This document shows positions 2,916 to 6,481 of a stretch of 64,000 nucleotides of DNA, piece after piece (position 1 is the stretch's first letter; every line of letters begins with the position of its first letter). A program made the translations under genes and the position numbers. The stretch lies in NCBI GenBank assembly GCA_046482545.1, contig JAWOEX010000021.1:64001-128000 (forward strand), in the 5' to 3' direction. The notes below the pieces were generated by a model that made no database searches, was not told where the DNA came from, and was given only the letters and a program-made list of their open reading frames with translations. Origin of the DNA: Candidatus Thorarchaeota archaeon. Its GTDB lineage: Archaea; Asgardarchaeota; Thorarchaeia; Thorarchaeales; Thorarchaeaceae.

Positions 2916-3380
2916 CTTATGGGCATCTCCTTGAAGCATTATTATTCAGTACGCTAATTAACGATTCCATTGGCCTCATAGTATGAATGAAGCGGAACAA
3001 GAACAATCATTCATCATTTCCAGCAGAGAGAGAATATGAAACCTAAACCATGATTGAATGAGATACAACAGCGGCATGCGAATATCAGCATCAAGCGGAT
3101 TTTCATTCGTCTCGTCAACCTGAAATAACTGACTACTGATGTCTAGTAAAATCCAAGGGTTGGATATGACCTGATTATGAAACAGCCGCTCAGCATCTCT
3201 TGTTCTTATGTATTCGAGTCCTACATCAGGCTAATTCTCATCATTTTGACTCGCATCGTATTCGTTGTGTCAGATAATACTGTTTGCTGAACTGTGGTGC
3301 TGAACAAGCGTCCGGATGCAAAAAGGGGAATCTAGGCAATCAGGCCGCACAACATTATTATTTGTAGACTATGTGCTAAG

Positions 3381-4200
3381 GGCCAAGTGGGTATCCGTCT
3401 CCACGGAGCACGGAGGTTGAGGGTGTTGAATTTGCCTTCACCTAACAGAGAACAGCAATCATCGGACACAGGGTATCAAGTCCTGGAGAGTCCGCGGCTG
3501 TTCACCATGTCCAGACGGACCTCCTCAGCTACGGTGACAAGGCTGAGGTGGGTGATCATGACCACGCCGTGGCAAGAACTGTGGAAGACCTCGCTGTCAC
3601 CGGGAGTGATGATCCGGGATGACGACAGGAGGAGGAAGCCAGGACCGCGGGAGGAATCCCATTCCGATGAACGTAGACAAAGCCCTGCTAACTCACGGGC
3701 CTACGGGTACCTTGGGGGCGGTGACGCTGGCAGGGGAAGGCCGGAACACAGAAGTTTCAAACAGTGTACGCAACTGTAAGAAACAGGTCATCTGGAGCTC
3801 CTCACTAGGAGGGAGCTGGCGGGACATAGATTGCGAAGAATGTTCACCTAGGGGCACTCGGCTGCTAACGCAGCTGAGTATGTTGAACTCTTCGATAGGA
3901 ACACCGTTGCCCGCCAGAGTTCCCAGAGAACCTGTAGTAGTCATATCAATTAGACTCATTGGCGACAACTCCACAGTTGCCGGTTTTCGAGGGCTCCAGG
4001 TTCACCTTACAATCTGTTTCTTGTAATTGAGTGAGAGCAACTTCGTAAGACTTCTGTACTCCACCTAGTCGATAATGAAGAGCTGACTGCGTCAAGTAAG
4101 CTCTCAATGCATTTGAAGGTCTGGATCAAGAAAAGTAGGAAGCAGTACTTAGATGCTCACCGGGAAGGCCAGAAAGAGAGTGCAGATGCAAAGAATCCAA
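3381..4200 (+). ncRNA. Putative large structured non-coding RNA of unknown family (core 3381-4024, probable 3' extension to ~4200)
   Basis: GC-richer than its flanks, no credible ORF. More than 10 helices readable by eye, including nested long-range pairs 3778-3789/4012-4023, 3816-3823/3910-3917, 3450-3456/3497-3503 and 3928-3934/3997-4003. Non-Watson-Crick positions are G-U on the + strand. TATA-like TTATTATT at ~3355. Confidence 0.7.
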
Positions 4201-4224: not shown

Positions 4225-4358
4225 AAGCAAAAAGGTGGCGACCACGCGATCGTGGTAGGAGGGGGGAGTTTCGTAATTGAGGGCATGTAACGAAAAACTA
4301 GACGCGTGATCGCCTCAATTCATTCATGCCATTCCAACTACGTTTTCTTTCCTATCAC
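4225..4358 (-). ncRNA. Putative small structured RNA, copy 1
   Basis: 52-nt core (4252-4303) identical to copy 2, enclosed by 12-bp stem 4237-4248/4303-4314 whose single C-A on + is G-U on -. U-rich 3' tail on the minus strand; TATA-like element at 4382-4389. Confidence 0.7.
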
Positions 4359-4634
4359 GAATTTTGTATACCGCCGACTTCTTATTAAACTTCCGATTGT
4401 AGACTAGTTTAGTAGACTTTAACTTCTATGGAACTCGGTTACTCTTTCGAAGTATCAAGTCTGAGTTTTTTGGTATTCGAAAATATTGGGAAAGAAGATG
4501 CATGAAAGTCTACAAAAGCGTAACCAAAGTCGAAGCCAGAAGAACTTCTAGAGGCATAGAAGGTGACGAGTGCGCGGATATAGTGGTAGGAGGGGGGAGT
4601 TTCGTAATTGAGGGCATGTAACGAAAAACTAGAC
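4252..4634. repeat. Perfect 52-bp direct repeat, two copies (4252-4303 and 4583-4634)
   Basis: GTGGTAGGAGGGGGGAGTTTCGTAATTGAGGGCATGTAACGAAAAACTAGAC occurs twice, 331 bp apart. Confidence 0.95.
4376..4395 (-). promoter_or_regulatory. Probable BRE/TATA promoter of small RNA copy 1
   Basis: Minus strand CGGAAG-TTTAATAAGAAGTC; the 13-mer TTAATAAGAAGTC is shared with copy 2 at an equivalent distance from the predicted 5' end. Confidence 0.6.
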
Positions 4635-4831: not shown

Positions 4832-6481
4832 TTACTCGTAGGGGTGTGAGATGCTTTCCTCTTCCATTTTGTCAGGGCGACTGCGTTTCCTCCACTCCTT
4901 TATTGGCATACTGAACTTGTCCTCAACCCTGTCACGATGGATAGTATTCATAGTGCAGAATGGGATGATTCTTCCGTCAGGAACACTGTAATTGATATCA
5001 CAGTGCTGCACACGCTCCAAGTCGAAATTGTACGGATCTTGGAAGTGCATCATACCAATCATGATAATGCGGTGCATAAACTCAGATAGTGAGTCATAAT
5101 CGCCTTTCTTCAGAAAAGCACCAAGCAAATCTTTCATCAATCCTTTTCGCTTGACATGGCGCAGTCCTGCGGCTAGTTTGGCTTTGGCCCGCTTGCCGGC
5201 AGCGAACTTCCCATCCGCATAGAGATTGCAGATGCCTTCCATAAGCTCAATGAATTTATCCACATCGATAAGATTGGTAATCGGCTCGTATCTCCCATCT
5301 TCATTGATGTAAATGAAGGTAGCCATACCACAGGCAAAGTGAGCACTAAGTTCCAATTGTGGAGTTCCTTTCATGAGCCCCATTGCTCGACCGATAGGCA
5401 TCATTCCCGGCACCGGATACCATTCTGATGCGGGAATTTTGCCATCAGTCTGTTCTTCGATTTTGTGAATCACATCGGGGATTGTTATTCGCATTTCTTG
5501 CCGCTTCTCATAATCAATCCGTCCTGTGATGCTGACAGGCTGGAAGTTCACACAACGAACAACGTCCTGGTTCTCCACAGCAAACTCGATAATATCGCCA
5601 ACCTGATCATCGTTTACACCTCGTACAACTGTAGGGACAAGGACAATCGAATCTAGGCCCACCTCTCTGCAGTTTTCGATGGCCTGCTTCTTCAACGGCA
5701 GCAGGTTCATCCCTCGTGCCGCTTCATAGGGCTCGGGTGTCACACCATCAAACTGCATGTAGATTGTCGACAGACCAGCTTCTTCGAGCTCTTTGGTATA
5801 TTCAAGTGATTTACCAAGGCGTATGGCATTGGTTGCAATCTCAGTATGCTTGAAACCAACGTCTTTGGCCCAGCGAAGATACTGTGGAAGATGCTTGCTG
5901 ACGGTAGGTTCGCCCCCTGCAAATTGAAGTGCTGGAGTTGGAACAGGCTTGTTGCTTCGAAGGTTCTTCATCATTTCTAGAACCTCTTCAGGAGTTGGCT
6001 CATACACTTCACCAGATTCTGCGGCGTGAGCGAAACAAATGGGGCATCGGAGGTTACACCTATTGGTGACATCAAGAAGAGCAAGTGCAGTATGCGATTT
6101 GTGCTCTGGGCACTGACCACAATCTTCTGGACAACCGTGTACAGTCTCTGTGCGAGGGTTATCAAGGCCTACTGTTTTGTACCACCACTTCTGGGCTTTC
6201 CTGAACATGTCGGCATCGCCCCAGTAGACATCTATAAACTCTCCATGTTTCTCACATTCTTTCTTGTACATAACCTTGCCATCTTCTTCGTAAAGAGTAG
6301 CATCAATGACATTAACCTCATCATCTGCTAACAGGCAATCAGGGCATATGGATTGGGTAGTATATGGTAGCTGACGTATCTCGTGTTTCTCAACGTGAAA
6401 TCGTGAGATATCATGCTCTTCATCTTCGAAAGGAAGCTCACTAGAAGGAACTGGTTCAATATCTGGTTCCATGAAAATCAA
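4832..6481 (-). CDS. tes: Radical SAM tetraether lipid synthase (Tes / GDGT-MAS, MJ0619 family)
   Basis: N-terminal SICPDC...CEKHG, GCPEDCGQCPEHKSHTAL, radical SAM CNLRCPIC, GGEPT, C-terminal FQDPYNFDLERVQHCDINY..DGRIIPFC. Confidence 0.85.
   Translation of the reverse strand: MIFMEPDIEPVPSSELPFEDEEHDISRFHVEKHEIRQLPYTTQSICPDCLLADDEVNVIDATLYEEDGKVMYKKECEKHGEFIDVYWGDADMFRKAQKWWYKTVGLDNPRTETVHGCPEDCGQCPEHKSHTALALLDVTNRCNLRCPICFAHAAESGEVYEPTPEEVLEMMKNLRSNKPVPTPALQFAGGEPTVSKHLPQYLRWAKDVGFKHTEIATNAIRLGKSLEYTKELEEAGLSTIYMQFDGVTPEPYEAARGMNLLPLKKQAIENCREVGLDSIVLVPTVVRGVNDDQVGDIIEFAVENQDVVRCVNFQPVSITGRIDYEKRQEMRITIPDVIHKIEEQTDGKIPASEWYPVPGMMPIGRAMGLMKGTPQLELSAHFACGMATFIYINEDGRYEPITNLIDVDKFIELMEGICNLYADGKFAAGKRAKAKLAAGLRHVKRKGLMKDLLGAFLKKGDYDSLSEFMHRIIMIGMMHFQDPYNFDLERVQHCDINYSVPDGRIIPFCTMNTIHRDRVEDKFSMPIKEWRKRSRPDKMEEESISHPYE

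Follow-up and report, generated by a model that had tools for sequence, protein, structure and literature searches.

Does an intergenic stretch in a Thorarchaeota genome (3.05 Mb, 98.9% complete) encode one large structured RNA of a new class? The question is raised by positions 3381-4200 of the window (the whole stretch of 64,000 nucleotides of DNA that was analysed, to which all coordinates without a contig or locus name refer). The initial annotation, made from the sequence alone, had read this region on the + strand as a single ornate RNA of 650-820 nt with nested long-range helices, which might represent an archaeal or Asgard counterpart of the bacterial OLE, ROOL and GOLLD RNAs. Our answer is that 3381-4200 is a species-specific composite, mostly transposon debris, and not a new large RNA class. 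The composite that we consider the best explanation, and hold with high confidence, consists of RNA debris of an aCas1-TnpB transposon (3475-3790) and a separate, constrained host relic. The transposon part most likely stems from a long omega-type RNA, of which it is a truncated copy; the group of Asgard transposons concerned has been named but little described.

The region lies within 1.9 kb of intergenic DNA flanked by a PhzF-like gene (2001-2939, - strand) and a radical-SAM gene (4832-6481, - strand), and its GC content rises to 53-58% across 3401-4000. Two ORFs within it, 3387-3779 and 3619-4026, were judged incidental, the former overlapping the region of the tnpB tail frame. Its parts are the following:

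3353-3362, + strand: TATA-like box whose position is shared by two sister species; may be the promoter of the host locus
3381-3474, + strand: 5' host segment, without folding signal; no homology detectable with the 5' part that the transposon RNA lacks here
3475-3790, + strand: 3' 320 nt of the transposon RNA with the right end, aCas1-TnpB family (profile columns ~116-436)
3754-3790, + strand: terminal hairpin (3754-3784) and sub-terminal TGTAAGA repeat; element end
3791-3796, no strand: target core TCTGGA, of the form TC-NN-GA; a single copy in the empty locus of each sister species
3791-3810, + strand: putative TnpB guide by analogy, if the copy is transcribed through its end
3790-4006, + strand: single-copy, genus-conserved, structured, non-coding host segment with an 11-bp closing helix (3790-3800/3992-4002)
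4012-4065, - strand: decayed second right end of the same transposon in reverse orientation, absent from sister species G002
4066-4200, no strand: AT-richer spacer outside any supported RNA, folding at chance level

In both sister species (G001 and G002) the orthologous locus lies between the same flanking genes and lacks the 3475-3790 repeat, i.e., it is the empty form, in which a TATA box is followed by ~125 nt, the sequence GGA-TCTGGA and the counterpart of the 3790-4006 segment. A DNA search of 41 genomes identified 3475-3797 as a dispersed repeat and found one match to 3775-4006 in each of the two sister species, while 4066-4200 had no homologue in its own genome or in the other genomes. 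On the 5' side, 3346-3440 is ~71% identical to the sister species, and 3348-3437 aligns with G002 at 72%. We also considered 3381-3474 as a diverged 5' domain of the transposon RNA and rejected this, since the model match at 3377-3515 is carried by bases after 3475; the 5' segments of the sister species had no match to the model of this domain. The reversed end at 4012-4065 matches the right-end profile with an E value of 3e-5 and is 80% identical to a right end on contig C28; the G001 contig ends before this point.

Over the host segment 3790-4006, identity with both sister species is 84%. The corresponding values are 47% and 36% for fourfold sites in the adjacent genes and 47-55% for other stretches of the intergenic DNA. 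It carries single-base indels and shows neither a conserved frame nor codon bias, and protein coding was rejected on both strands because the indels break the frames. A model of the segment recovered the three orthologues and two weak matches inside a coding gene of another Thorarchaeota; as non-coding DNA it was found in no other genus. The matched gene is a member of a multicopy family of patchy distribution, which encodes radical-SAM-like proteins of ~311 aa. The segment is colinear with codons ~103-190 of this family, with E 3e-8 in the case of G002 and 39.5% over 43 aa in that of G001. This colinearity, together with the indels and the conservation, argues that 3790-4006 is a non-coding relic of a radical-SAM-like gene that is under constraint at the nucleotide level. 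Our best guess is a structured RNA that is specific to the genus and transcribed from the conserved TATA box, and we regard it as slightly more probable than not that the segment is functional. An RNase MRP-like reading was rejected, because the candidate conserved regions are misordered and the pairing is not kept in G002.

A wider reading, which we consider a serious contender though slightly on the improbable side, takes the whole empty host locus (~3386-3474 plus 3790-4006, ~345 nt) as a functional, genus-specific RNA exapted from the radical-SAM-like gene, with the transposon insertion tolerated as an extra arm; it can be compatible with the transposon-debris explanation. The excess conservation, the indels and the lack of codon bias speak for it, as do folding z-scores of -4.2 and -3.5 and the fact that in one subfamily of the radical-SAM-like genes the corresponding coding stretch forms the same closing helix when folded (z -2.4 to -4.0) and varies little between two paralogues. 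The 10-bp hairpin at 3856-3879, which the initial annotation had picked out, is kept in three genomes through a two-sided change and G-U swaps. Against it, the comparison comprises three sequences only, in which many changes outside this hairpin break predicted pairs, such that support for the structure beyond the hairpin and the closing helix is thin. The interior reaches a z-score of only -1.4 in G002, and a fold as good as that of the host segment was seen in 2 of 40 windows taken at random from the genome. The non-coding form is also confined to one genus, and in its own genome it is interrupted by the transposon. If it is transcribed, the ~215-nt segment would be a structured RNA born from a coding gene, in one genus only.

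With respect to the radical-SAM-like genes themselves, one genome (G004) carries three copies, 92-100% identical, of a gene pair of 311 and ~330 aa without Pfam match (L086:141-2041, L092 and L093). Within L086, the coding stretch 484-713 folds with a 13-bp closing helix, and two paralogues differ there at ~6 of 300 positions, compared with 11-24 per 100 elsewhere. Fragments of the 311-aa gene are also found in the genome of the window (C3:5143-5227 and C30:6129-6446).

The repeat to which 3475-3790 belongs is abundant: its own genome holds ~91 pieces, 40 of them full-length, which amount to 27 kb. The region has matches in 24 of 24 genomes of the family, partly via a neighbouring 52-nt motif, and in 0 of 15 more distant genomes; a model of the RNA 5' domain, run against 17 family genomes and 103 other Asgard genomes, matched 12 of the former and none of the latter. 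Full copies extend ~115 nt further to the 5' side than the copy in the window, and upstream of them lies either a ~110-bp left end or tnpB, the latter immediately upstream in six copies. The full RNA of ~435 nt overlaps the last ~70-85 codons of tnpB and then extends to the right end of the element, with a 3' border that is sharp against the variable flank.

An alignment of 34 copies from many genomes yielded a structure of 95 pairs in 18 helices, with 96.4% of the cells paired and two-sided changes at 49 of the 95 pairs and in 16 of the 18 helices. None of 500 shuffles came as high, and slid controls gave 40-45%; these covariation controls are inflated by the relatedness of the aligned sequences. 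Sequence conservation is also raised in the 5' two thirds of the RNA by the coding overlap in autonomous copies. A 63-sequence alignment is concordant with this structure and adds a terminal hairpin. Two of the helices that the initial annotation had proposed, CCUCAGC/GCUGAGG (3523-3548) and CCCUGCUA/UGGCAGGG (3683-3735), belong here and covary in the family. Two GNRA loops are kept in 33-34 of the 34 sequences, and G-U pairs are frequent. Frequent G-U pairs and conserved GNRA loops are features of an RNA rather than of a DNA signal. We infer that the ~435-nt molecule, which lies at the 3' end of tnpB, is a putative omega RNA of TnpB. A literature search found no paper on it.

The element itself has defined ends, with the motifs TCTTACA (left) and TGTAAGA (right) placed nine bases inside a flanking TC-NN-GA hexamer. 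A full copy is arranged as left end, cargo, tnpB and the ~435-nt RNA up to the right end; two copies of 8.2 and 8.3 kb carry tnpB and a divergent ORF with a Cas1 fold inside the same ends, and the majority of copies are gene-less elements of ~560-600 bp with these ends. The 6-bp core is present on both sides in 19 elements, and its central two bases are identical across the sides in 11 of 15 pairs (2.2 expected). A longer target duplication was rejected, because 8-12-bp matches are few and the bases are common to sibling copies as part of the left end. When the element and one core are taken out, ORFs of 240-501 aa are regained for five elements, in both orientations, and an in-register empty site is seen between species. 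Two arrangements were observed in the own genome (G000): gene-less copies lie head to head at C20:181319-182451, and at C22:202876-204530 there is a composite in which a left end on the outside has its core in common with an inner copy's right end, 1.65 kb away, which suggests the capture of host DNA. At L045:6476-8326, two ORFs that by eye resemble an AbiEi/AbiEii-type toxin-antitoxin pair lie directly upstream of a tnpB copy.

The conventional recombinases were searched for as well. No ORF of the two full elements is a Y1 TnpA, and the single Y1 gene of the genome lies elsewhere; there was no PF00239 match to a serine recombinase in the 98.9%-complete genome or among the ORFs of the full elements; no tyrosine recombinase was matched in the own genome; and the ORF lists of both 8-kb elements contain no PolB gene. 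The pair of tnpB and the Cas1-like gene recurs at two further loci of the own genome and in four other genomes.

The TnpB of these elements (544-560 aa) matches PF07282 and has a TnpB/Cas12f fold, with a tail (470-542) that is predicted to be disordered. The catalytic residues RuvC I D241 and RuvC III D436 are invariant, the canonical RuvC II glutamate is replaced by G344, and an invariant E402 is found in a later loop, such that cutting would depend on E402 as an alternative. This arrangement corresponds to the rearranged RuvC sites with an alternative glutamate that have been proposed for such TnpBs (PMC10691335), which makes nuclease activity plausible at the sequence level.

The Cas1-like protein is 1410 or 1655 aa long in the two full elements and 1400-1980 aa overall. 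It combines an N-terminal Cas1 fold with a PD-(D/E)XK motif, and its gene is divergent from tnpB; the giants of 1410-1960 aa at L039:3610-8577, L040:2589-6821, L041:4044-8645 and L042:2914-8799 are always in this orientation. Within the N-terminal 300 residues, E, H and D are invariant in Cas1-like motifs. The seven best matches of the N-terminal model among 48,161 chains are all Cas1, with Z 7.6-9.2 over 131-173 residues; the model has a mean pLDDT of 57, and these Z values are slightly above the chance range for helical folds. Foldseek likewise placed Cas1 at the top, in weak agreement. Pfam Cas1 had no match in the genome or the element proteins, the domain had no match by sequence to solved structures, and the C-terminal two thirds of the giants are without Pfam match. 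The protein is thus a candidate integrase on the basis of fold and motifs.

Which known system does this element resemble? According to the main text of Altae-Tran et al. (2023, PMC10691335, citing Makarova et al. 2020), Asgard aCas1-TnpB loci contain TnpBs linked to the Cas1 variants Cas1H-Asgard-1 and -2, which were suggested to be the transposases, and a GTTCACTCA motif follows a hypervariable segment downstream of tnpB. The family here likewise lives in an Asgard host, pairs tnpB with a diverged gene of Cas1 fold and has terminal repeats; the right ends of many members also carry the GTTCACTCA motif. We have assigned it to this group because both the Cas1-linked tnpB and the motif fit that description. 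The main text of that paper is silent on the structure and length of an RNA, on gene-less copies and on a target core; the family here shows a covarying RNA of ~435 nt, dozens of gene-less copies of ~560 bp and a TC-NN-GA core of 6 bp that is duplicated.

Like the omega RNAs or reRNAs of IS200/IS605 and IS607 elements (ISDra2; PMC10821889, PMC10055086), the RNA is structured, overlaps the 3' end of tnpB, runs to the right end and has a partner of TnpB/Cas12f fold. However, at ~435 nt it is considerably longer than the 231-nt omega RNA of ISDra2 (PMC10821889), and it has no Rfam match. The partner of tnpB is a Cas1-like protein instead of a Y1 or serine TnpA, and the family further differs by inverted sub-terminal repeats, the glycine in RuvC II and a duplicated core, whereas IS200/IS605 elements make no target duplication. 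With casposons (PMC9939771) the family shares a candidate Cas1-fold integrase, inverted terminal motifs and a target duplication. It differs from them in that PolB is absent from the two 8-kb elements, the duplication is 6 bp rather than 15 bp, targets are dispersed, tnpB is carried along, and the Cas1 domain is fused into a protein of 1400-1980 aa. OLE, ROOL and GOLLD are alike in size and number of helices only; there is no covariance-model match and no single conserved unit, and the main part is a dispersed repeat.

By analogy with IS200/IS605, the RNA would be transcribed through the right end and bind TnpB, using bases of the right flank as guide. In IS200/IS605, TnpB-guided cutting of element-free alleles restores the element (PMC10055086); TnpB would likewise cut such alleles here, so that the element is restored or retained. 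The Cas1-like protein would move gene-less copies in trans. These copies may keep the RNA because each would need its own guide, with both proteins borrowed in trans. The guide may be the right flank or the internal hypervariable segment, as has been suggested for the latter (PMC10691335). In the window, the putative guide at 3791-3810 matches its own locus only.

The family thus has a concrete model, in which the RNA scaffold is about twice as large as that of ISDra2, the ends are defined, the target core measures 6 bp and gene-less copies are numerous. This makes TnpB guiding and Cas1-type integration testable and bears on the union of the ancestors of Cas1 and Cas12. An extension, which we think unlikely, is that the additional domains of the ~435-nt RNA also engage the Cas1-like integrase, such that insertion or excision would be RNA-dependent, with the window again holding a truncated copy. 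If this were true, a single transposon would unite, in the absence of a CRISPR array, an integrase of the Cas1 type with a Cas12-like nuclease and an RNA common to both.

The copy in the window is broken and adds little beyond the transposon family. It lacks the left end, tnpB and the first ~115 nt of the RNA, and carries a shorter hairpin variant without the GTTCACTCA motif. Its start corresponds to profile column ~116-121, and five other copies begin likewise (columns 113-128), near an internal TCNNGA-like site. The left junction falls on an ATC common to the host target and the RNA, which makes a normal insertion at TCTGGA followed by a ~235-bp microhomology deletion at ATC the simplest history that we can envisage. 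Since the left end and the 5' helices are lost, this copy should be immobile and is probably a defective scaffold.

The DNA run X1, which may be the source sample, bridges the left junction. RNA-library contigs, which give no strand, start or level, cover 3710-4127 (X4) and 3710-3924 (X3) and thus run across the transposon end and the host segment; 3710-4127 is near mismatch-free, which is a weak hint of transcription at most, as DNA may be present in the libraries. There is no such contig over 3005-3474, which proves nothing, and the high read depth over 3475-3790 is the sum over many copies.

We now return to the reading of the whole 650-820-nt stretch as one ornate non-coding RNA, a new Asgard class like OLE, ROOL or GOLLD. 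The complementary segments listed for it are all present where they had been placed, except that the arm given as 3778-3789 is really 3777-3788. The + strand of 3381-4200 does fold better than shuffles (-295 kcal/mol, z -2.96 from only 20 shuffles; z -1.38 for the - strand), with 41 stems of at least 7 bp as compared to 25.5 +/- 4.2 in shuffles. The conserved TATA box upstream and the RNA-library contigs that bridge the transposon end and the host segment, of unknown strand and possibly DNA, also favour it. However, resolved by segment the z-scores are -0.15 (3381-3474), -0.67 (3475-3793), -4.21 (3791-4006) and +0.31 (4007-4200), i.e., the first and last segments fold at chance, and the parts differ in history, given that the sisters lack 3475-3790 and G002 also lacks 4012-4065.

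Helices within single parts are in some cases kept in homologues (3523-3548, 3683-3735 and 3856-3879), but the long-range ones that cross the borders between parts are not. The 3450-3503 helix spans the junction of host and transposon, shuffling its 5' side gave an equally good fold in 62 of 1000 cases, and its 3' strand pairs otherwise in the family (3492-3498/3566-3572 and 3500-3506/3551-3562). The ~245-nt domain proposed between 3777-3788 and 4012-4023 is closed by a 12-bp helix because 4012-4065 is a decayed right end on the - strand, so that two transposon right ends lie face to face. Its inner helix GAACCUG/CAGGUUC (3928-4003) is not kept in G002. For the helices at 4032-4106 and 4108-4190 no homologue was found, and stems of this kind are as frequent as chance would have it (2 observed, 2.5 expected).

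Rfam had nothing relevant to 3381-4200, either at the gathering threshold or at E up to 10, and the OLE, ROOL and GOLLD models had no match there. Identity with RNase P RNA, which had been raised as a check, is not borne out: RF00373 had no match, and the RNase P RNA of this genome is on contig C34 (156.5 bits). An SRP RNA reading was rejected as well, as the SRP RNA of the genome is on another contig. The single RNA thus dissolves into the transposon RNA in truncated form, a segment of the host and the remains of a second transposon end, in a locus whose sisters lack the insertions. What stands of the proposed class is that Asgard non-coding DNA here holds a real large RNA structure; the novelty of the class does not. 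The one-RNA reading is largely refuted, and we grant it very little probability.

Two readings of the multicopy RNA fare equally poorly. A self-splicing intron fused to a transposon, as in IStrons, would fit the size (435 nt, at least 18 helices, about twice the 231-nt scaffold of ISDra2; PMC10821889), but is highly improbable, since Rfam has no group I or II match, the structure lies entirely at the 3' end after tnpB, the gene-embedded copies are antisense in three cases and sense in two, and 14 of 19 copies are outside any long ORF. That the conserved folds are single-stranded DNA or recombination signals for transposition would agree with the whole region being kept beside the right end in gene-less copies, but 5'-truncated copies recur and the G-U pairs and GNRA loops point to RNA, such that this reading, too, deserves scarcely any weight.

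Finally, two conserved elements were observed in the vicinity. Upstream, 3183-3245 (- strand) is 77% conserved with G002, where it can be read as the start of a small ORF that is interrupted in the window. Downstream, a near-invariant core of ~51 nt occurs twice (4253-4303 and 4584-4634), with closing stems that vary in sequence and keep their pairing. This core occurs family-wide and in one sister-family genome, usually next to the PhzF-like gene, and structured insertions in or ahead of it are present in one G002 copy (L033:1418) and in L026. One contig from an RNA library, with an adapter at each end, spans 4262-4348.
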